DNA from: an uncultured Spirochaetota bacterium
Lineage (GTDB): Bacteria > Spirochaetota > Spirochaetia > SZUA-6 > Fen-1364
Direction of reading: 5' to 3'
Assembly (NCBI GenBank): GCA_963781885.1
Contig: CAWAHW010000002.1
Coordinates: 896,001-960,000, forward strand
Length of the DNA stretch: 64,000 nt
The number at the start of each line of letters is the position of its first letter. The first letter of the stretch is position 1. The notes beneath the pieces were generated by a model. The model searched no databases. It had not been told where the DNA came from and saw only the letters and a list, made by a program, of their open reading frames with translations. The translations under genes and the position numbers were made by a program. Of the stretch, positions 27,242 to 38,608 are shown in pieces.

Positions 27242-28642
27242 CTATCTTTTTCTGCTCACCGGCGCATCAGTGACCGGGCACGGGTAAGAGCCAGAGAAGC
27301 AGGCGGTGCAGTAGTCCCCGGGGTTCGGCACGCATCGGCGCAGCTCGTCCAGCGACAGGAAACGCACGGAGTCCGCGTCGATCTCCCGGGCGATCCCGTC
27401 GGGATCGAGCCGATTGGAGATGAGCTCTTCCTTGGTCGGTATATCGATGCCGTAGAAGCAGGGAAACCGGATGGGCGGGGAGGACATCCGCAGGTGCACC
27501 TCGCGCGCCCCTGCTTCGCGCAGCAGCCGCACGATCTGGCGCGACGTGGTGCCGCGTACAAGCGAATCGTCCACCACGGCCACGCTCCTGCCCGCGATGG
27601 CTTCCCGCACGGGATGCAGCTTCATGCGCACGCCCCACTCGCGCATGGCGACCGTGGGCTGGATGAAGGTGCGGCCCGTGTAGTGGTTGCGCTGGAGACC
27701 CAGCTCGAGGGGCACGCCTGAAGCCTGCGCATAGCCCAGGGCCGCGCTGTTGCCGCTGTCGGGCACGGCGATCACGATGTCGGGCCTGATGGTGTCGGTG
27801 CGCGCGAGCATCTCTCCCATGCGCTTGCGCGCCATGTGCACCGATTCGCCGTAGACCACCGAGTCGGGCCGGGCAAAATAGATCAGCTCGAAGATGCAGT
27901 GCGCGCGGCGCCCGACCTCCGCGTGCGGCAGCCGCTCGGAGCTCACGGTCGTCCCGTCCACGGTGACGAGCTCACCCGGGGCGATCTCCCGGATGTCGCG
28001 CGCTTCGAACATTTCCAGCGCGCAGGTCTCCGAAGCGATGATGACCTGTCCGTCACGCGTGCCCATCACCAGAGGGCGGAAGCCGTACGGGTCGCGCACG
28101 GCATACATCCTGGCGTCATGCATCATGAGGAAGCAGTACGCGCCCTGTATCTCCCGCAGGCATTCGATGAGCGCGTCCTTGAATGTCGGCTGGCGCGACC
28201 GGGCGATCATGTGGAGGAGGAGCTCCGTGTCCGAGGTGCTCTGGAAAATGGAGCCCTCCGCGACCAGCTTCCGCTGCAGCTCCTCTGAATTGGAGATGTT
28301 GCCATTGTGGGCAAGGGAGATTTCGCCCTTGCTGCACGACACGACGATGGGCTGCGCGTTTTCCAGCTTGTTCGTGCCCTGGGTGGAGTAGCGCACGTGC
28401 CCGATGCCCAGCCGCGATGAGTGCGTCTCAGAAAGATAGTGGGAGAGCGCCTGCGTGACCATGCCGACGCTGCGGTACGACCTGATGCGTCCATGCCTCT
28501 GGTAGGCAAGACCCGCGCTTTCCTGGCCCCTGTGCTGGAGTGAGAACAGCCCGTAGAAGAGCAGCTCGGGCATGTTGACCTCCTCTCGCGAGGAGATGCC
28601 CACGATGCCGCAGTGATGCCGGAGCGATTCGCCGTCTTCCAC
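27242..28642 (-). CDS. purF: Amidophosphoribosyltransferase
   Basis: Short propeptide then CGIVG, QHRGQES, GHVRYST, VDDSLVRGTT; GTG start at 28642 preferred. Confidence 0.96.
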   Translation of the reverse strand: MEDGESLRHHCGIVGISSREEVNMPELLFYGLFSLQHRGQESAGLAYQRHGRIRSYRSVGMVTQALSHYLSETHSSRLGIGHVRYSTQGTNKLENAQPIVVSCSKGEISLAHNGNISNSEELQRKLVAEGSIFQSTSDTELLLHMIARSRQPTFKDALIECLREIQGAYCFLMMHDARMYAVRDPYGFRPLVMGTRDGQVIIASETCALEMFEARDIREIAPGELVTVDGTTVSSERLPHAEVGRRAHCIFELIYFARPDSVVYGESVHMARKRMGEMLARTDTIRPDIVIAVPDSGNSAALGYAQASGVPLELGLQRNHYTGRTFIQPTVAMREWGVRMKLHPVREAIAGRSVAVVDDSLVRGTTSRQIVRLLREAGAREVHLRMSSPPIRFPCFYGIDIPTKEELISNRLDPDGIAREIDADSVRFLSLDELRRCVPNPGDYCTACFSGSYPCPVTDAPVSRKR

Positions 28643-28648
28643 GCCGGA

Positions 28649-28702
28649 ATGAAACACAAAAGGGGGGTGCGAGTCAACACGGCCACGGTACCCCGTGGCA
28701 TT
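28649..28702 (-). promoter_or_regulatory. purF promoter with upstream palindromic motif
   Basis: Minus strand AATGCCACGGGGTACCGTG, 6 bp, TTGACT-17-TTTCAT. Confidence 0.55.
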
Positions 28703-28738
28703 CAGAACGGCGCTGCCGGCTTGACGGCGCCGGCGGGG

Positions 28739-29416
28739 TCAGCTCTTCTTCACCTTGCGGATGTCCTTCAGGTAGTTGTAAACGGTGAATTTCGTAACAC
28801 CCATTTTCCTGGCCAGGACGTCCACGGAGCCTTTCAGGTTGAAGAGGCCCTGGACGTAGAGCTCGTGGACGATCCGCCTGTTTCTTTCTATCGATGAAAC
28901 GCCGCTCATGATGGAGAACCTTTGGACGGCTGAGCGGTACGAGTTCTCTATGAGATTTTCCGCGGTGGGCGAATAATGCTCCGCGATCTTCGTGCCCGGC
29001 ACGTCCTGCCCGATGGCCGGGAAGGTTGCCAGGAGGTCGACGAGCGACCCGGACAGGTTGAAGTTGATGCAGAGAAAGCCGATCAGCTTACCCCTTCGAT
29101 TGCGGATACATGTGGTGACGGAATGCACCACCTTGCCGCCGGACACCGTTGAGGTATAGGGCCCGATAACATCCGAATCGTGGGTTTTCGATTCGTTCAG
29201 GACCCCCAGGGCGAGATCGGTAAGGGGCGCACCCACCTTCCGGCCCGTCACATGCCCGTTGACGATCTTGATCACGGAATGGGTCGGATCTTCGAGCGAA
29301 TGCACAACGACCTCTGTTTCGCTCCCGAAACAGCGCGCGATGCCGACCGCGATGTTTGCATAGTTGCTCAAAAGCGACTTCTCTTCCGCCGAAAACTGTT
29401 TTTTAATGTTTTCCAA
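28739..29416 (-). CDS. YheO/DauR-like regulator (PAS_6 + HTH_22)
   Basis: EVVVHSL, NGHVTGRKVGAPLTDLAL, GFLCINF, GLFNLKGSVDVLARKMGVTKFTVYNYL; TTG start inferred. Confidence 0.9.
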   Translation of the reverse strand: MENIKKQFSAEEKSLLSNYANIAVGIARCFGSETEVVVHSLEDPTHSVIKIVNGHVTGRKVGAPLTDLALGVLNESKTHDSDVIGPYTSTVSGGKVVHSVTTCIRNRRGKLIGFLCINFNLSGSLVDLLATFPAIGQDVPGTKIAEHYSPTAENLIENSYRSAVQRFSIMSGVSSIERNRRIVHELYVQGLFNLKGSVDVLARKMGVTKFTVYNYLKDIRKVKKS

Positions 29417-29482
29417 TGTGTCGGTCCCCCGACTCCTAATATAGCGTTCGCCTTCCACAAAGCAAGCCGTCAATTCAAGAAA

Positions 29483-29544
29483 GACAAAATATTTGAAACA
29501 ATCAACAAAATTGTCTTGACAACCCATTGCGTCGGGCATATTCT
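29483..29544 (+). promoter_or_regulatory. ABC operon promoter with conserved 39-bp box
   Basis: GACAAAATATTTGAAACAATCAACAAAATTGTCTTGACA then 17 bp then TATTCT; box repeated at 35071. Confidence 0.75.
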
Positions 29545-29743
29545 ACGGAACGAAAAACAGGAAAGGGCGGCGCGTCGCGGTCCTATCCGGTCTGGACGAA
29601 AAGGTTGGAGCAGGGAAGATGATGGGCGAACAATCATGCGCAGGGTTGTTTCGGCGGTGCCGGCCGGAGGCGCGTCGCGCTCAATCGAACTGACGTTGGC
29701 GTTCTACCGAAAGGTTGAAATCAATCAGAGGAGGTCGGAGAAA

Positions 29744-31075
29744 ATGAAGGTTTCTGGGAGAGTAATAACTCTGGCGAATGTGCTCCTGGTCTCGTGTCTG
29801 CTGTGCGCGCCTGTCGTCGCGCAGACCTCGGGTTCCGGAGCCAAGGCGACCATCACCTTTGCGGCCAGAACTGAAACCGGCAACGTGATGGAAGCCCGCA
29901 ATCTCAGCCTGGCAAGATTCGCCGCAAAGTATCCCAATATCACCGTCAAGAGGGAAGAGATGCCTCAGACGGACTTCTGGATCAAAATCACCGCGGAAAT
30001 CGCGGGCGGACAATGCCCCGATGTGATTTCGCTCCCGTACCTGGAGCAGGCCGTGACCTTCGCGGGAAAGGGTCTGCTTGAACCCCTCGATGCGTACATT
30101 GACGGTTCCAGTGGCCTGGATCGAAAGGATTGGATTCCGGAGCTGAGCAACATGGGTGTATACGGCGGCAAACAGCTCGTCCTGCCGGTGGCATTGATGA
30201 CAACGGGTCTCGGCTACAACAAGGACATGTTCGACAAGGCCGGCGTCGCTTACCCGACCGCAAACTGGACGTGGGATGACATGCTGGCCGCCGCAAAGAA
30301 GCTGACCTTGGATGACAAGGGCAGGAACGCCGGGGATCCCGCGTTCAATCCCGACAAGATTGTCCAGTGGGGCATCTATACCTGGTGGTGGAACTCGGAT
30401 TTCGATCTCTACCTGTGGACCTTCGGCGGCAACTGGCTGAGCGAGGACGGGAAAACGTGCCTGCTCGACAGTCCGCAGGCGCTTGCGGCCCTTACGTTCT
30501 ACGGCGACCTCACGCAGAAATACCACGTTGCACCCTACCTGCGTGAGCTGGCACCGGCCCACGGGCATCCGGCCATGATGCAGAAACAGGTTGCAATGGC
30601 GTTCATCGACATCGGCAACATCGCACTGGTCGATGGCGCCGGCATCAACTGGGGCATGGCTCCGATTCCCTTCAAGAAGGACGTTGGCAAGCGCGCGGCT
30701 TTTCTGTACGGGGACGGCGTCGCCATTCTCAAAGGGGCCCAGAACAAGGCCGCAGGCTGGGAGCTTGCAAAATGGCTTGCGGGCCCTGACATGGATCCGC
30801 AGCTCGCAAAGGCCGGCTATGGCTTCCCGCCCTACAAGTCCGCCATGGCCCGGCTGGCATTCAGCCCGAAGGTGAATGTCCTGCTCGACATGGTGCAGAA
30901 AGGGTGGACGCGCGCCATCCGCGCGACCGACTACCAGGGCATGGTCGTCACTCCCTGCAACACACTCATGGAAAGCGCGCTTGCAAAAGGGTCGAGGCCC
31001 GACTACAAGGCCCTGCTCCAGCAGGCCACCGCGCAGTGCACGCAGGCCATTCAAGATGCACCGCCACTGCAGTAG
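29744..31075 (+). CDS. Carbohydrate ABC transporter substrate-binding protein
   Basis: RBS GGAG, signal peptide, GLLEPLD, YNKDMFDKAGVAYPTANWTWDD. Confidence 0.9.
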   Translation: MKVSGRVITLANVLLVSCLLCAPVVAQTSGSGAKATITFAARTETGNVMEARNLSLARFAAKYPNITVKREEMPQTDFWIKITAEIAGGQCPDVISLPYLEQAVTFAGKGLLEPLDAYIDGSSGLDRKDWIPELSNMGVYGGKQLVLPVALMTTGLGYNKDMFDKAGVAYPTANWTWDDMLAAAKKLTLDDKGRNAGDPAFNPDKIVQWGIYTWWWNSDFDLYLWTFGGNWLSEDGKTCLLDSPQALAALTFYGDLTQKYHVAPYLRELAPAHGHPAMMQKQVAMAFIDIGNIALVDGAGINWGMAPIPFKKDVGKRAAFLYGDGVAILKGAQNKAAGWELAKWLAGPDMDPQLAKAGYGFPPYKSAMARLAFSPKVNVLLDMVQKGWTRAIRATDYQGMVVTPCNTLMESALAKGSRPDYKALLQQATAQCTQAIQDAPPLQ

Positions 31076-31082
31076 GAGCTGA

Positions 31083-31132
31083 CACTCCCGGCGATGAAGG
31101 TGGCCCCCCGGGGTCACCTTCATCAGGGAGTG
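31083..31132 (+). other. Intercistronic stem-loop after the binding-protein gene
   Basis: GATGAAGGTGGCCCC/GGGGTCACCTTCATC stem plus outer CACTCCC/GGGAGTG; no U tract, likely mRNA stabiliser. Confidence 0.65.
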
Positions 31133-31142
31133 CTGTCGCGCA

Positions 31143-32048
31143 ATGTCAATCGCAAAGCCCTACAGACATTCGACTTTTGAGCAGGCAAAGATGCGGGCGG
31201 TGGTTCTTTTCCTCGCGCCGGCATTGATCATCCTGGTCGTCTTTTCCGTTGTTCCCACACTTGCCGCAGTTGTGCTGAGCTTCATGAAGTGGGACATGCT
31301 CAGCCCCATGAAGTTCAACGGGCTTCGCAACTATTCCCAGCTGCTGGGGGATACGCGCTTCACGGCATCACTGGTGAACACGATCTATTACGTCTGCGGC
31401 TTTGTGCCCTTGTCCGTCATCTTCTCGCTTTTCGTCGCGCTGCTCCTCAATGAAAAGTGGCTGCGCGGCAAGCAGGTCTTTCGCGTCCTCTTTTTCATTC
31501 CCGTGGTCGTCTCGCTCATCGCGGTGGGAATGATCTGGAAATGGATCTACAACCCCGCTTTTGGATTGTTGAACCAACTCCTCGCGCCACTGGGGATTTC
31601 GCGCCAGTTCTGGACGTTGGATCCCGCGCTGGCGATCCCGTCGCTCGTCGTCATGAGCACCTGGCAATGCTTCGGTTACAACGTGGTGATATTCCTGGCG
31701 GGCCTGCTGGCAATCCCCATGGAGCTCTACGAGGCCGCCGCCGTCGACGCGGCCAATGCCGGCCAGCGGTTCCGTCTCATCACCTTCCCGTTGCTCGCGC
31801 CGACCACGATCTTCGTCGTCATCATCTCGGTCATCTCCTCATTCCAGGTTTTTGACCAGATACTCATCCTGGGAGACGTCGGCACGCCTCCCAAGAGCCT
31901 CGTCGTTACGGTTTACTATCTCTATGAGATGGCCTTCGGCTCGTTCAAGATGGGGTATGGAGCCACCATCGGCATCGTCCTTTTCCTCTTCATTCTTGTC
32001 ATCTCGATCCTGCAATACCGGTTCTATGCGCAGAGGTTCGAGAAATGA
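31143..32048 (+). CDS. Carbohydrate ABC transporter permease
   Basis: FLAPAL, GLRNY, EAA loop LYEAAAVDAA, FQVFDQI. Confidence 0.93.
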   Translation: MSIAKPYRHSTFEQAKMRAVVLFLAPALIILVVFSVVPTLAAVVLSFMKWDMLSPMKFNGLRNYSQLLGDTRFTASLVNTIYYVCGFVPLSVIFSLFVALLLNEKWLRGKQVFRVLFFIPVVVSLIAVGMIWKWIYNPAFGLLNQLLAPLGISRQFWTLDPALAIPSLVVMSTWQCFGYNVVIFLAGLLAIPMELYEAAAVDAANAGQRFRLITFPLLAPTTIFVVIISVISSFQVFDQILILGDVGTPPKSLVVTVYYLYEMAFGSFKMGYGATIGIVLFLFILVISILQYRFYAQRFEK

Positions 32049-32897
32049 GCTCCGTCAAGGCCGCGCTGCCGCCCCGCGCCATTCTCGGAAGAACGATCGT
32101 CTACGTCTTTCTGATCGCGCTGTCCCTGGTGACACTGTTTCCATTTCTCTGGATGCTCAGCACGTCCCTGAAGACCGAGGGCCAGGCAATCGCGATGCCG
32201 CCGCAGCTGATGCCCCACCCGTTCCGTTTCCAGAACTACGTGGAGGCATGGAATCTGCTCCCCTTTGCCCGCTTCTACCTGAACACCGCCGTCATCTCCG
32301 TGGCGACTGCGGCCGGTGCGGTGCTTCTGAGCGCCCTTGCCGGCTGATGCGCTGGCCAAATACCGGTTCAGAGGGCAGCAGGCGCTCCTCATGTTCTTCA
32401 TCGCCACGATGATGGTTCCCTATTTCGTGAACCTTGTCCCGGTCTATGTCTTGCTGGCGAAGCTGAAATGGCTGGACACCTATCATGGGTTGATCGTGCC
32501 GCAGCTTGCGAAGCCTTTCGGGATCTTTCTGATGCGGCAGTATCTCGTGAGCATCCCCTCGGAGTATATCGAGGCTGGACGCATCGACGGCGCCTCCGAG
32601 TATCGCATCTTCGGGCGCATCGTCATGCCCCAGTGCCTGCCCGTCCTCGGCACGTTGACGCTCTTCTTCTTCGTCGGGACGTGGAACTCCTTCATGTGGC
32701 CCCTGATCGTCACCAACAGCATGAACATGCGGACGGTGACCGTGGGCCTTGCGATGCTTTCGGGAGGCAACAATCGGACGCAGTATGCCCTGCAGATGGC
32801 CGCGGCGACGGTGGGCATGATGCCCGCCATCATCGCCTTTCTCATATTCCAGCGATACCTGATCCAGGGGATCGCGTTGACCGGATTGAAAGGGTGA
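32045..32897 (+). CDS. Carbohydrate ABC transporter permease (apparent +1 frameshift near 32346)
   Basis: PFLWMLSTSLK in first frame; EAGRIDGASE, WNSFMWPLIV, FQRYLIQGI in second; removing one base restores AGYALAKY. Confidence 0.85.
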
Positions 32898-32901
32898 CCG
32901 C

Positions 32902-34038
32902 ATGAGCAATCTTGCCGACCTGTCGCGCCTCAGGAACTATCGATCAAAGAAGCTATCCACGTGGGACCAGACGGGGGGCAATCATGACTTCGTCGTGATC
33001 CCCGCCGGCGCGACGCATCGGCTGCCGGAGATCAAGGGCCCGGGGTGCGTCACCCACATCTGGATGACGGTGGCGTGTGAGGACCTCCTTTATCCGCGCA
33101 AGATGATCATCCGCGCCTACTGGGACGGTGAAGAAAACCCCAGCATCGAGAGCCCGCTCGGCGATTTTTTCGGCGTCGGCCACGGGCAGGTGACCAGCTT
33201 TGTTTCAGCGCCGCTTGCGATGGTCTCCGCCGAGCCTCCGCTGCACAACCGTGCGGCAATGAACTGCTTCTTTCCCATGCCCTTCGCCAGCTCCGCCCGT
33301 TTCGAGATCACCAATGAATGCAGCCGGGACGCCTGGGCGTTTTTCTATCACATCAGCTACGAATTGTACGACGCGCCGCTGGACGCCAATCAGGGGCGCT
33401 TTCACGCCCAGTGGCAGCGGGAAAACCCGTGCCAGGGCTGGGGTGATTTCGGGGTTGCCGATCCGTACCCGTCCTTCCGCACGCACACTGCTGCTGAGCC
33501 GCTGTGGGACACGCCGAATCTCGACGGGGCGGGCAACTACGTCATCCTGGATGCCGTGGGGCGCGGGCATTTTGTCGGCTGCAACCTCAGCGTGCACAAC
33601 ATCACCAACAAGAGCTACACGTGGTGGGGCGAGGGGGATGAGATGATCTTCATCGACGGCGAGCCCTTTCCCCCGTCGATCCATGGTACCGGCAGTGAAG
33701 ACTACTTCTGTTTTGCCTTCTGCCTGCCGGGCAAGCTCAGCACGCCCAATTTCGGCTGTTCCCTGTCCGGTGACCCTCGCAACATGACGGGCAAATGGAC
33801 CCTCTACCGTTATCACGTGGAATCCCCGATAAACTTCCAGCGCTCCATCCGCGTCACCATCGAGCACGGGCACGCGAACAATCGCTCGGACGACTATGCG
33901 AGCGTTGCGTACTGGTATCAGGCGGAGCCTCACCGTGCCTTCCCGCCGATCCTGCCGGTTGCACAGCGCCTGCCGCGGCCAGATCTGCCCCTTCAACTCC
34001 CCGACTGGGAACGGCGCGACCGGCCCATCATCGAGTAG
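32902..34038 (+). CDS. DUF2961 / glycoside hydrolase family 172 protein
   Basis: GPGCVTHIWMT, PLGDFFG, NCFFPMPF, WWGEGDEMIFIDGE, GTGSEDYF, TIEHGHAN. Confidence 0.9.
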   Translation: MSNLADLSRLRNYRSKKLSTWDQTGGNHDFVVIPAGATHRLPEIKGPGCVTHIWMTVACEDLLYPRKMIIRAYWDGEENPSIESPLGDFFGVGHGQVTSFVSAPLAMVSAEPPLHNRAAMNCFFPMPFASSARFEITNECSRDAWAFFYHISYELYDAPLDANQGRFHAQWQRENPCQGWGDFGVADPYPSFRTHTAAEPLWDTPNLDGAGNYVILDAVGRGHFVGCNLSVHNITNKSYTWWGEGDEMIFIDGEPFPPSIHGTGSEDYFCFAFCLPGKLSTPNFGCSLSGDPRNMTGKWTLYRYHVESPINFQRSIRVTIEHGHANNRSDDYASVAYWYQAEPHRAFPPILPVAQRLPRPDLPLQLPDWERRDRPIIE

Positions 34039-34041
34039 GCC

Positions 34042-35038
34042 GTGGCCGCCGGCGAGACGATCATGTACCACGAGCCCGGGACGACGCGACGCTTCTGGAT
34101 CGATACCGACACGGCATCTGACGACGCGGTGGCCATTCTCATGGCTCTGCGCTGGCCGGGCGTGCGGGTGGAAGGAATCAGCATTGTTGCCGGCAACGTC
34201 CCGGTGGAACAGGGAAGCATCAACGCCCGCTACACCGTGGAGTTGTGCGGCGCCGATGTACCCGTTCATGAAGGGCTGCACAAGCCGCTCGTGCGGCCGG
34301 CGCGTGATGCGCGCAGCTTCCATGGCTCCGACGGCATGGGGGAGATGCATTATCCGCCGCCGTCGCGCCCGGCGTCCGGCACAGACGCCGTGTCGGCGCT
34401 GCTGTCTGCCTTCGAGCAGACCCCCGGCGCAACTGACGCTGGTGACGTTGGGGCCTCTCACCAATATTGCGACGGCTCTCTGCCTTGAGCCGCGGCTGGC
34501 GCTATGGGTGAAACATTGCGTCGTCATGGGTGGTGCGGCCTGCACGGTGGGAAACGTCACCCCGGCCGCAGAATACAACGTGTGGTGCGATCCCGAGGCG
34601 GCGCATGTCGTCTTTCACTCCGGAATGCCCATCCTGATGGTCGGGTGGGAGATGTGCCGCGGGGAAGCGAACGTCATGGACGCCGACATTTCCTCCCTGC
34701 GGGCACTTCGCTCGCCGTACGCCGATTTCGCCCTTGACTGCAACCGCAGTATCTATGCGGGCAACCGCGCCAAGTACCACGACGCCGGCATCCCGCTCCC
34801 CGATCCGGTGACCATGGCCGTTGCTCTGGACCCTTCCATTTGCGTCCGCAGGAGCTCGTGCTTCGTCGAGGTGTCTCTTGACCAGGACCTGACCCGCGGC
34901 ATGACGGTCGTCGATCAGCTTGGCGTGCTGAAGCGCCCGGCAAACCTGGACGTGTGCTGGGAGATCGATGTCGCGCGGTGGAAAAGAGCGCTCGCCGCGG
35001 CGCTGAACGCGGGGAGCGTCGTCCCCCCGGGCCGTTAG
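34042..35038 (+). CDS. Nucleoside hydrolase, IU-NH family (apparent +1 frameshift near 34428)
   Basis: IDTDTASDDAVA, HGSDGMG, LGPLTNIA, GNVTPAAEYNVWCDPEAA, LPDP. Confidence 0.88.
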
Positions 35039-35070
35039 GGCGCCCGCCGCCGCGTCCGCGTAGCAGCGAT

Positions 35071-35132
35071 TACAATATATTTGAAAAAATAAAATAAATT
35101 GTATTGACAGCGATCCGCCGTTGGAATAGTGT
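35071..35132 (+). promoter_or_regulatory. tnaA promoter with conserved 39-bp box
   Basis: TACAATATATTTGAAAAAATAAAATAAATTGTATTGACA then 17 bp then TAGTGT. Confidence 0.75.
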
Positions 35133-35201
35133 GCGTGTCGGCCGAAAGGCTCGCCGGCGGGGCGCGGTCCGGGAGGAGGGTGCACCGTGACAGGAGCAGT
35201 G

Positions 35202-36578
35202 ATGACCATGAGAGCCGAACCGTACAAGATCAAGATGGTCGAGTCTATCAGCCAGATCCCCGCCGGGGAGAGACGGAGGAAGATCGCGGAGGCAGGGTAT
35301 AACGTGTTTGCCTTGAAGGCGGAGGACGTTTACATCGACCTGCTGACCGACAGCGGGACGGGCGCAATGAGCGACGCGCAGTGGGCGGCCATGATGCGGG
35401 GCGACGAGGCCTATGCCGGAAGCAAGAGCTACTTTCATCTGCACGACAGTTGCCGCGAAATCACCGGCTACCCGTTCATGGTGCCCACGCATCAGGGTAG
35501 GGGGGCGGAGAATGTCCTGTTCCCCCTCCTGATCGCGCGGGGCCAGTATGTTCCCGGCAATATGCATTTCGACACCACCATGGCGCACATCGAGCGCTGC
35601 GGCGGCATACCGGTCAACTTCGTCGTGCAGGAGGCCTTCGACACGACGACATACCATCCTTTCAAAGGCAATATCGACGTTGAGAAGCTGGAGAAGTTCA
35701 TCGTGGAGAAGGGCGCGCACCGCTGCGCGTTCATCCTCGTGACCGTGACCTGCAACAGCGCGGGCGGGCAACCCGTGTCGATGCAGAATCTCCGCGCCGT
35801 CAGGAAGCTCGCGGAGAAGCACGGCATCAGGCTCTTCATGGACGCCGCCCGGTTCGCGGAGAACGCTTATTTCATACGGCAGCGGGAGGAAGGTTTTCAG
35901 GACAAGAGCATCGGGGAAATCGTCCGCGAGATGTTCGCCTGCGTCGAAGGCTACACCATGAGCGCCAAGAAGGACGGCCTTGTGAACATTGGCGGGATGA
36001 TCGGTATCCGGGAAGACCGGGAACTGTTCGAGCTTGTGCGATCGAGCCTCGTGCCCGTCGAAGGCTTTCCCACGTACGGAGGCCTGGCCGGTCGCGACAT
36101 GGAGGCCCTGGCAGTCGGCTTGCGCGAAGTCGTGGATGAGCAGTACCTGGAATCGAGGATCGGGCAGGTCGAGCTCCTGGGAAAGCGGCTGCAGGAGGCG
36201 GGGATTCCCATCCAATGCCCGGTGGGCGGGCATGCGGTATTCGTTGATGCGAAGAAGTTCCTGCCCCACATTCCCTATCATCAGTTTCCCGCCCAGGCCC
36301 TTGTCGTGGAGGTGTACCTGGAAGCGGGAGTGCGCGCAGTGGAGGTGGGCTCTTTTCTCCTGGGCAGGGACCCGCTCAGCGGTTCCCAGCTAGAGTCACC
36401 GCTGGAGCTCGCGCGGTTGACCATTCCGCGGCGCGTCTATACCGACAATCACCTTGGCGTCGTTGCCGACGCGCTCGTGAATATCTACAAGCGCCGCGCG
36501 CAGATCAAGGGCCTGCGGATCACGCATGAGCCCAAAGTCCTGCGCCACTTCACCGCCTGCCTTGCGCCGGTGGAGTAA
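35202..36578 (+). CDS. tnaA: Tryptophanase (PLP beta-eliminating lyase)
   Basis: [22 protein letters not shown] (PLP Lys), LRHFTA (tyrosine phenol-lyase has SGKKD and LRFFTA); start 35187-35208. Confidence 0.9.
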
Positions 36579-36657
36579 GGGACGTCCGCCGCAGACGGCG
36601 CGGGGCGTGTCCGCCGATGCCTCACGACACTTTGAGCGCATGGCTGCCGGTCTTCCG

Positions 36658-37650
36658 CTACTCCCGGAGGTAGCTTTCGACAATCTCCTCGTACTCGCCG
36701 ATGCTTTCCGCCTGGACGACGCTCTGGCGGAGCAGGGAGCCGCCCTCCATCCCCTTCGTGTAGGCCACGAAATGCTTCCGCATGTCGCGGCAGGCCTTCA
36801 GCTCGCCCACCGATTCCGCGAGCAGCCGCAGATGCTGCATGGCCGTGGAGAGGCGCTCCCCGGCGTCGAGGCGCGCGGCGACGCCGCTTCCCGACAGAAG
36901 CTCGATCGTCTGGGCGAAGATGAAGGGGTTGCCCAGGCAGCCGCGCGCGAGCATCACCCCGTCGCAGCCGGTGCGTCTCAGCATGTCGGCGCAATTGCCG
37001 GCCGTGAAAAGATCGCCGGACCCGAAGACGGGAACCGCCGCCGCCTGCTTGAGCGCGCGGATGTGCTCCCACTGTGCGGTGCCGGAGAATGCCTGGGCGC
37101 GCGTGCGCGGATGCAGGGTCACCAGCGAGGCGCCTGCCCGGATCGCGGCGTCTGCGCATGCAAGGTAGGTGAGGGAGGACGAGGTGTCGCCGAGACGAAG
37201 CTTCACCGACAGCGGCAGGTCCGTCTCCGATCTCATCGCGGCGACGATGGACCCGATCAGCGACGGGCTGCGCATCAACGCGGCTCCGCAGTCGGCCTTC
37301 AGGACCTTGGGGACCGAGCATCCGCAGTTCAGGTCGATGATCGCGGGCCCGAGGGGGACGATCCTGCGCACCGCCGCGGCGGCCGTGGTCGGCGCCGACG
37401 CGAAGAGCTGGAAGCCGGTCAGTTTCTCGTTGGGCGCCGTGCGCAGCAGGCGGAGCGTCGTGGCATTGTTCCGCGCCAGCGCGTCGGCGGATACCATCTC
37501 GGTGAAGCAGAGACTGGCGCCGTGACGCACGCAGACCGAGCGGAATGCGGCATCCGTGTACCCTGCCATGGGCGCAAGCCACACGTTGCCGGGCACGTCG
37601 AGTGAGGAGACGCGGACCGGGTGGTAGGGGCCCGGATCAGGACAGTCCAA
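36658..37650 (-). CDS. dusB: tRNA dihydrouridine synthase
   Basis: LAPMAGYTD, TEMVSA, IDLNCGC, HPRT, GVMLARG; start uncertain. Confidence 0.9.
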   Translation of the reverse strand: MDCPDPGPYHPVRVSSLDVPGNVWLAPMAGYTDAAFRSVCVRHGASLCFTEMVSADALARNNATTLRLLRTAPNEKLTGFQLFASAPTTAAAAVRRIVPLGPAIIDLNCGCSVPKVLKADCGAALMRSPSLIGSIVAAMRSETDLPLSVKLRLGDTSSSLTYLACADAAIRAGASLVTLHPRTRAQAFSGTAQWEHIRALKQAAAVPVFGSGDLFTAGNCADMLRRTGCDGVMLARGCLGNPFIFAQTIELLSGSGVAARLDAGERLSTAMQHLRLLAESVGELKACRDMRKHFVAYTKGMEGGSLLRQSVVQAESIGEYEEIVESYLRE

Positions 37651-38466: not shown

Positions 38467-38608
38467 AGAATATCACGTTGAGAGTGGCAAGTCAAATTTA
38501 TTGTTTCCGGCGCTTTCTGCCGCTCCGGGGACGTTTTTTCCCCCGCGGAGACCTTCCCGGCGACGAATTCCAACACCCTTTGACAAAAATCCCGCCCTGT
38601 GGTATTGT
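38467..38608. promoter_or_regulatory. Divergent promoters for tatD and the M23 operon
   Basis: Minus: TTGACT-17-TATTCT (38495-38467); plus: TTGACA-17-TATTGT (38580-38608). Confidence 0.6.

Follow-up and report, generated by a model that had tools for sequence, protein, structure and literature searches.

The window is a 64,000-nucleotide stretch of DNA from an uncultured Spirochaetota bacterium (assembly GCA_963781885.1, contig CAWAHW010000002.1, positions 896,001 to 960,000 of the forward strand). It contains two similar 39-bp boxes, a and b. Box a is located between a regulator gene of the YheO/DauR/HeuR family and a divergent operon that encodes an ATP-binding cassette (ABC) importer, a DUF2961 protein, and a nucleoside hydrolase. 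Box b precedes a gene of the tryptophanase/tyrosine phenol-lyase family. The two boxes are considered here as candidate operators of the regulator. The regulator gene, the boxes, and the promoters they adjoin are as follows.

28739..29416, minus strand: regulator with PAS_6 and HTH_22 domains (YheO/DauR/HeuR family), 225 amino acids, probable TTG start
29483..29521, plus strand: box a, made up of a left unit (29483-29497), a 3-nt spacer, a right unit (29501-29515), and the -35 hexamer TTGACA (29516-29521)
29485-29495 and 29503-29513, plus strand: cores of box a, CAAAATATTTG and CAACAAAATTG, respectively
29516..29544, plus strand: predicted sigma-70-type promoter of the ABC/GH172/nucleoside hydrolase operon, TTGACA-17-TATTCT, from a promoter scan
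35071..35109, plus strand: box b, made up of a left unit (35071-35085), a right unit (35089-35103), and the -35 hexamer TTGACA (35104-35109)
35073-35083, plus strand: core of the left unit of box b, CAATATATTTG
35104..35132, plus strand: predicted promoter of the TnaA-like gene, TTGACA-17-TAGTGT, recognized by eye

The regulator is a two-domain protein. PAS_6 (PF08348), a YheO-like PAS domain, is located at the N-terminus (E 7.1e-37, 126 bits against a cut-off of 27), and HTH_22 (PF13309) is located at the C-terminus (E 6.5e-15, 55.3 bits against a cut-off of 29.6). These domains agree with the initial annotation of the DNA, which had placed a divergent YheO/DauR-type regulator beside the first box. 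Twenty-seven homologues can be aligned with the protein from end to end, the conserved [VI]S[RK][YF]T[VI]Y motif included, and this alignment makes TTG the probable start codon. A search by sequence for a matching structure found none at E up to 0.01. The genome has no HTH_22 gene besides that of the regulator, and no other regulator gene was seen in a domain search of the proteins encoded on the surrounding island, described below.

The paired boxes and their promoters

Boxes a and b are identical at 32 of 39 positions without gaps, and TTGACA forms the 3' end of both. A repeat search of the window recovers the same pair (84% over 38 nt). The genome that was scanned comprises 4,643,512 bases in 7 contigs, including 16,000 bases as N, and its G+C content is 61-64% per contig. 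With either box as the query on both strands, the other box is returned at 32/39 and the runner-up reaches only 26/39. Sequence and genome scan thus bear out the earlier description of two 39-bp copies in a GC-rich genome. They also exclude the possibility, raised with it, that the box precedes many unrelated promoters, as no further genome match exceeds 26/39. Box-type sites are limited to two copies in 4.64 Mb, and both precede island promoters that would be co-regulated. Weaker 39-mer matches at C1:347412 and C2:1064959 (contig and position) were rejected; they belong to other promoters, whose upstream tracts are A+T-rich, and do not represent the box.

As a null set, 41 genome sites were taken at which a 33-mer with 66% A+T or more stands before TTGACA. 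Compared pair by pair (820 pairs), these sites share on average 10.7/33 positions (standard deviation 2.9), and the highest value after that of a and b is 20. Without the hexamer, boxes a and b share 26/33, which is far outside this distribution. In the flanks, the 40 bases to the left are identical at 14/40 positions and the 40 bases to the right at 18/40. Identity is therefore 82% within the box versus 35-45% immediately outside. That the similarity ends at the box edges points to constraint rather than a neutral duplicate. Chance does not explain the resemblance between a and b, which is real and has sharp limits.

The arms of the imperfect inverted repeat that makes up each 33-bp box are complementary at 10/15 positions in box a, 12/15 in box b, and 9/15 in the corresponding box at the homologous locus L104 (see below). 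The box is better described as two 15-bp CAA-N5-TTG units whose centres are 18 bp apart. The outer half-sites of boxes a and b, (G/T)ACAA and TTGT(C/A), are strong and the inner half-sites are weaker. It had been proposed that the outer dyad co-varies (G..C in one box, T..A in the other). This claim does not hold up, since it concerns a single event and the L104 box has a mixed T..C pair.

Box a adjoins the -35 hexamer of the divergent operon and, with respect to the regulator gene, is located 67 bp upstream of the start codon. The promoter at box b is unlisted in the consensus scan, its -10 hexamer matching at only 3/6 positions. Judged from the -10 hexamers, transcription would start near 29551 and 35139. 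Relative to these inferred starts, both boxes would span about -68 to -36 with like geometry.

The strict core of the unit, CAA-W5-TTG, occurs six times in the whole genome, and two of these are the left units of boxes a and b. The other four (C1:51157, C2:934493, C2:1154697, and C4:678936) are single units and are counted as chance because about 3.7 occurrences are expected genome-wide, as estimated from base composition. Two of the three cores at C1:51157, C2:1154697, and C4:678936 lie within coding sequence. The core at C2:934493 corresponds to window positions 38493-38503 (CAAATTTATTG) in the intergenic region between tatD and the M23-peptidase gene, 3.4 kb past box b. It is a single unit without a partner, consistent with chance.

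Boxes and neighbours of homologous regulators

The closest homologues of the regulator have 50-53% identity at the protein level. The closest one with DNA retrieved is on L104 (retrieved loci carry L numbers), a 2.2-kb metagenome contig with a regulator that is 50% identical. As in the window, the L104 regulator is divergent from an ABC binding-protein gene. Their intergenic region contains TACAAAAAAGTTGCAGGGGTCAAATATATTGTC, followed directly by TTGACA. This box is 28/39 identical to a and likewise to b, and specific C and G positions of boxes a and b are conserved in it as well. No other site in 2,823,990 bases of 247 loci matches both boxes as closely; the runners-up reach 26 and are in A+T-rich loci. 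Unconstrained DNA would be unalignable at 50% protein identity. The binding proteins of the window and L104 are non-orthologous (26% identity over 54 amino acids), so the box goes with the regulator and not with the target gene. Two matches from a first pattern scan of genome contigs, in Firmicutes metagenome-assembled genomes (MAGs; L002 and L003), have no regulator homologue by tblastn and were treated as chance.

The single unit is also enriched at more distant homologues. The strict core is present upstream of the regulator homologue in 17 of 122 non-redundant loci and is found in both collections, in 8/65 loci of the genome set and 9/57 of the metagenome set. It is about 24-fold denser upstream of the 122 homologues than in other non-coding DNA, with the following densities.

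Upstream of regulator homologues: 18 sites in 30,202 bases, 0.60 per kb
Other non-coding DNA: 5 sites in 201,517 bases, 0.025 per kb
Coding DNA: 33 sites in 1,070,901 bases, 0.031 per kb

Control palindromes of the form XYZ-W5-rc(XYZ) that contain G or C are found in at most 4/122 loci. The core palindrome has its spacing peak at 5, and the extended consensus of the repeated unit is TTACAA-W5-TTGTAA. A matrix built from the 18 foreign sites ranks the left unit of box b first and the left unit of box a second genome-wide, under two background models.

A 12-mer from the box, allowing up to one mismatch, gives a similar picture. It has 44 matches in 1,098,630 bases of 80 genome loci, and five of these (L081, L007, L026, L034, and L036) fall in the 150 bp that precede the regulator gene. 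In 80 metagenome loci, it has 25 matches in 530,214 bases, 7 of them within 200 bp upstream of the regulator; such 200-bp upstream regions total 15,143 of the 530,214 bases. At L081 (Desulfobulbaceae), CTCAAATTTTGTTGAC and CTCAAATATTTTGTTGACA form two units in tandem that overlap the -35 hexamer of the regulator gene itself. The upstream region of L007 contains TTCAAATTTTTTGTTGACA, and here too the unit overlaps the regulator's own -35. At L152, two cores are 19 bp apart within G+C-rich DNA. A seeded expectation-maximization motif search drifted to G+C-rich noise and was discarded. Nearly identical Aeromonas loci and A+T richness distort the enrichment of 8-mers, which is treated as a lead only.

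A related but rearranged A+T-rich box (AAATAAATTTAATTTT..AAAATA plus TTGACA) is observed at L004 (7640-7700 and 8200-8240) and at L190, downstream of the regulator. In these Treponema-like MAGs, it precedes promoters of RidA and binding-protein genes. Its two occurrences in L004 mirror the two-promoter layout of the window.

The genes beside the homologues were surveyed at 34 loci, using 97 open reading frames chosen from 150 listed (199 called), with distant or overlapping frames dropped. A RidA (Ribonuc_L-PSP) gene is next to the regulator in 21 of the 34 loci (L111, L109, L118, L105, L119, L116, L112, L121, L107, L125, L122, L004, L114, L133, L124, L110, L007, L129, L128, L005, and L009). 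RidA is usually followed by amino-acid transporters, aminotransferases, serine dehydratase, or Beta_elim_lyase. The window island is without a RidA gene. No paper linking YheO-type regulators with RidA was found in the literature searched. Beta_elim_lyase genes are found beside the regulator homologues of L009, L071, L106, L110, L122, and L196, of which L106 and L196 are nearly the same in their upstream DNA and may both come from one organism. SBP_bac_1 transporters are found beside those of L104, L004, and L121. Both kinds of target in the window recur beside this regulator clade. In L009, from a Spirochaetales MAG, a gene with a cucumopine-synthase C-terminal domain (65-1117) is located just upstream of the regulator-RidA-lyase cluster. 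This domain hints at opine-like or conjugated amino-acid substrates for the clade.

The acquired island and its genes

The regulator, both boxes, and both target units are contained in a lineage-specific insertion that was recently gained. The island and the predicted target genes are as follows.

About 28706..36655, no strand assigned: insertion of about 7.9 kb in the purF-dus spacer, from alignment with the closest relative
29744..31075, plus strand: ABC substrate-binding protein (SBP_bac_1/SBP_bac_8), from domain search
31143..32048, plus strand: ABC permease 1 (BPD_transp_1), from domain search
32045..32897, plus strand: ABC permease 2 (BPD_transp_1), in two frames with an in-frame TGA at 32345-32347
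32902..34038, plus strand: DUF2961 protein (domain E 2.6e-81)
34042..35038, plus strand: gene of the inosine-uridine-preferring nucleoside hydrolase family (IU_nuc_hydro), in two frames
35202..36578, plus strand: Beta_elim_lyase of the tryptophanase/tyrosine phenol-lyase family; the start may be GTG at 35187

The closest relative in the island alignment has a purF gene that is 94% identical. In all seven genus relatives examined, purF is followed by dus-tatD-M23 without the insertion. None of 40 relatives has a match to the regulator at E up to 1e-20. The absence of the insertion from the seven relatives, together with that of the regulator from the 40, argues that the regulator, the boxes, and both transcription units arrived, or were retained, as one module. 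No integrase or transposase was found within the island. At each island junction, there is a short G+C-rich string (GCTGCCGG-like) that resembles the one at the other, perhaps by chance.

The genome encodes a second gene of the TnaA/TPL family at C3:60335-61693 (locus L189), which is 51% identical to the window lyase. The lyase genes of the relatives are 49-51% identical to the window lyase, with one same-order relative at 35%, and those of the genus relatives correspond to the C3 copy. At the C3 lyase, there is no box-like site among the top matrix matches.

The lyase of the window is assigned at the level of the family. It passes only the subfamily model PRK13238 (714.7 against a cut-off of 285). 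It fails both TnaA equivalogs, TIGR02617 (605.9, cut-off 825.8) and NF053783 (625, cut-off 750), and also scores below the cut-off of the tyrosine phenol-lyase model TIGR02618 (625.6, cut-off 720.7). Its matches in the PDB are nearly equal, at 558 bits for tryptophanase and 551 bits for tyrosine phenol-lyase. The name tryptophanase, given initially, is thus retained for the family and not for TnaA proper.

DUF2961 is taken here to be glycoside hydrolase family 172 (GH172), with furanosidase activities. The earlier description of a sugar ABC/GH172/nucleoside hydrolase operon stands as far as the domains go and is qualified by frameshifts in two of the genes. In the nucleoside hydrolase gene, the frame shifts near a C5 run at 34420-34430. 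These frameshifts, in permease 2 and the nucleoside hydrolase, may represent early decay of the operon or assembly indels. A public DNA run assembled to short, low-depth contigs that span neither the boxes nor the frameshift sites.

A riboswitch or attenuator was considered for the two leaders and rejected. A search of 28500-37000 against Rfam found nothing at E up to 1, and the leaders are not unusually stable, with fold z-scores of 0.17 for the leader of about 190 nt at the binding-protein gene and 0.59 for that of about 60 nt at the lyase gene. No separate short open reading frame that could encode a TnaC-like leader peptide was seen in the 60-nt leader. The leader of the binding-protein gene contains an 11-nt exact direct repeat, GGCGCGTCGCG, at 29569-29579 and 29669-29679, 100 bp apart.

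Interpretation, alternatives, and significance

Boxes a and b are likely the operators of the island-encoded PAS_6-HTH_22 regulator and would define one small regulon. This is the reading of the initial annotation, and it has gained support from the L104 box, the enrichment of the unit, the regulator's place as the sole HTH_22 gene, and co-acquisition. Other explanations of the boxes are less probable to different degrees.

The box could be a real operator of some other DNA-binding protein encoded elsewhere, such as a nucleoid-associated or global factor, which is unlikely. The sequence AATCAACAAAATTG in box a is similar to an IHF-type core, with spacing off by one, but box b is without an IHF-like core. 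Two copies in the genome are ill-suited to a global factor, the motif accompanies PAS_6/HTH_22 genes in different phyla, and the island has no second regulator gene.

It is rather more improbable that the pair is a relic of promoter duplication, in which one promoter cassette gave rise to another inside the island and the boxes resemble each other for historical reasons, without shared binding of a regulator. The two copies are 5.6 kb apart on one acquired island, and the -35 hexamer and the -35/-10 spacing are the same at both promoters. Such a relic does not account for the fall from 82% identity in the box to 35-45% just outside. Nor does it account for a box of like layout beside the 50%-identical regulator of L104, which stands before a non-orthologous gene where neutral DNA would be randomised.

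The least probable explanation, and a very weak one, is an upstream promoter (UP) element, a generic A+T-rich tract contacted by the alpha subunit of RNA polymerase without a specific regulator. UP elements are likewise A+T-rich tracts at about -40 to -60, directly upstream of the -35; the position of the boxes (about -36 to -68) and their A+T richness fit, and other promoters of the genome also have such tracts before TTGACA (41 sites in all). The boxes differ from a UP element in their pairwise identity (26/33, an outlier among the 41 sites), in specific C and G positions that are conserved in L104 too, in dyad units of which the genome has only six strict cores, two of them in the boxes, and in the association of the unit with regulator homologues of unrelated phyla.

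Several observations weigh against the boxes being operators of the regulator. A perfect -35 with an A+T-rich tract could work without a regulator. The inner half of the right unit of box b is degenerate and has no inner CAA, and the 18-bp spacing of the centres is a non-integral number of helical turns, so that two dimers would not be on one face of the helix. The complete two-unit box is found only in the window and L104. In species-representative genomes, the strict three-way consensus pattern has no matches; the loose two-unit pattern has six, about the chance number, and none of the six has a regulator homologue within 3 kb. The strict core is absent from 105 of the 122 homologue loci, and most members of the family use degenerate or different sites. 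Other spirochaete loci mostly have RidA after the regulator, and their units follow a different arrangement. Permease 2 and the nucleoside hydrolase are both frameshifted in the assembly. The core pattern was picked after some loci had been viewed, which makes its nominal Poisson P too small. Sounder evidence than this P comes from the control palindromes and from the second collection, in which the result is replicated.

The regulator can be compared with a few characterized systems. DauR of Pseudomonas aeruginosa belongs to the same family and is a local, ligand-responsive repressor of dauBAR, which is involved in D-arginine catabolism. Neither an operator for DauR nor a motif for the YheO family was found in the literature searched. 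The Pseudomonas homologue locus L077 has TTTTGTTGAAATATCAAC upstream, which resembles the unit in a different arrangement. In Escherichia coli, tnaCAB is controlled by the TnaC arrest peptide with Rho-dependent attenuation, plus CRP. A tryptophanase-family gene is controlled in both cases; the window lyase differs in having no leader peptide or structured leader and in that a dedicated regulator is predicted to control it at initiation.

HeuR (Cj1387c), a local transcription factor of Campylobacter jejuni, has the same PAS_6 and HTH two-domain architecture as the window regulator. According to excerpts of the published reports, it binds a target promoter region (PMC5111405; PMC4519771) and controls haem uptake, with iron-uptake transcripts of several genes falling in the mutant (PMC5111405). 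In the same excerpts, the authors state that HeuR's specific binding site is still to be identified (PMC5111405). The initial annotation had HeuR controlling amino-acid related genes, which these excerpts correct: HeuR governs haem uptake (PMC5111405). Its targets there are haem and iron uptake and flagellar modification, and these differ from the genes of the window.

In the proposed mechanism, two dimers of the regulator, or one tetramer, would sit at about -68 to -36 of each of the two promoters. Since box a is located between the divergent genes, control probably extends to the regulator's own promoter. The PAS_6 domain would sense a small molecule that switches all units together. The sugar-type ABC importer, the GH172-type furanosidase, the nucleoside hydrolase, and the TnaA/TPL-type lyase would thereby be co-regulated.

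Control may well be repression that is relieved by an inducer, and activation is nearly as likely. Unit centres near -61 and -43 would suit class I/II-type activation. A box that abuts a perfect -35, with weak -10 hexamers, would equally suit repression of a UP-assisted promoter. The units that overlap the regulator's own -35 in L081 and L007 suggest negative autoregulation. The fall in iron-uptake transcripts in the HeuR mutant, as excerpted, suggests that HeuR is an activator (PMC5111405).

A wider and rather doubtful reading is that TTACAA-W5-TTGTAA is the general operator unit of the PAS_6/HTH_22 family and that the mobile 7.9-kb cassette couples the import and de-glycosylation of a conjugate to beta-elimination. 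The family would then typically govern RidA-linked amino-acid catabolic modules. In the window, the CUT1-type ABC importer, the GH172 enzyme, and the nucleoside hydrolase would act on a furanosyl or N-ribosyl conjugate, and the TnaA/TPL-type lyase would beta-eliminate the released aromatic amino acid. If true, a glycosylated compound resembling tryptophan or tyrosine would be broken down by an undescribed catabolic route.

As a principle, an operator shared by the targets of a local regulator is ordinary. The YheO/DauR/HeuR family is widespread and poorly known, and the boxes provide its first candidate operator. With the unit positions, two natural copies, and the L104 copy in hand, this candidate makes prediction of the family's regulons testable. 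The putative regulon of the window unexpectedly pairs a sugar-type uptake and hydrolase operon with a tryptophanase-family lyase, which would point to an uncharacterised substrate.

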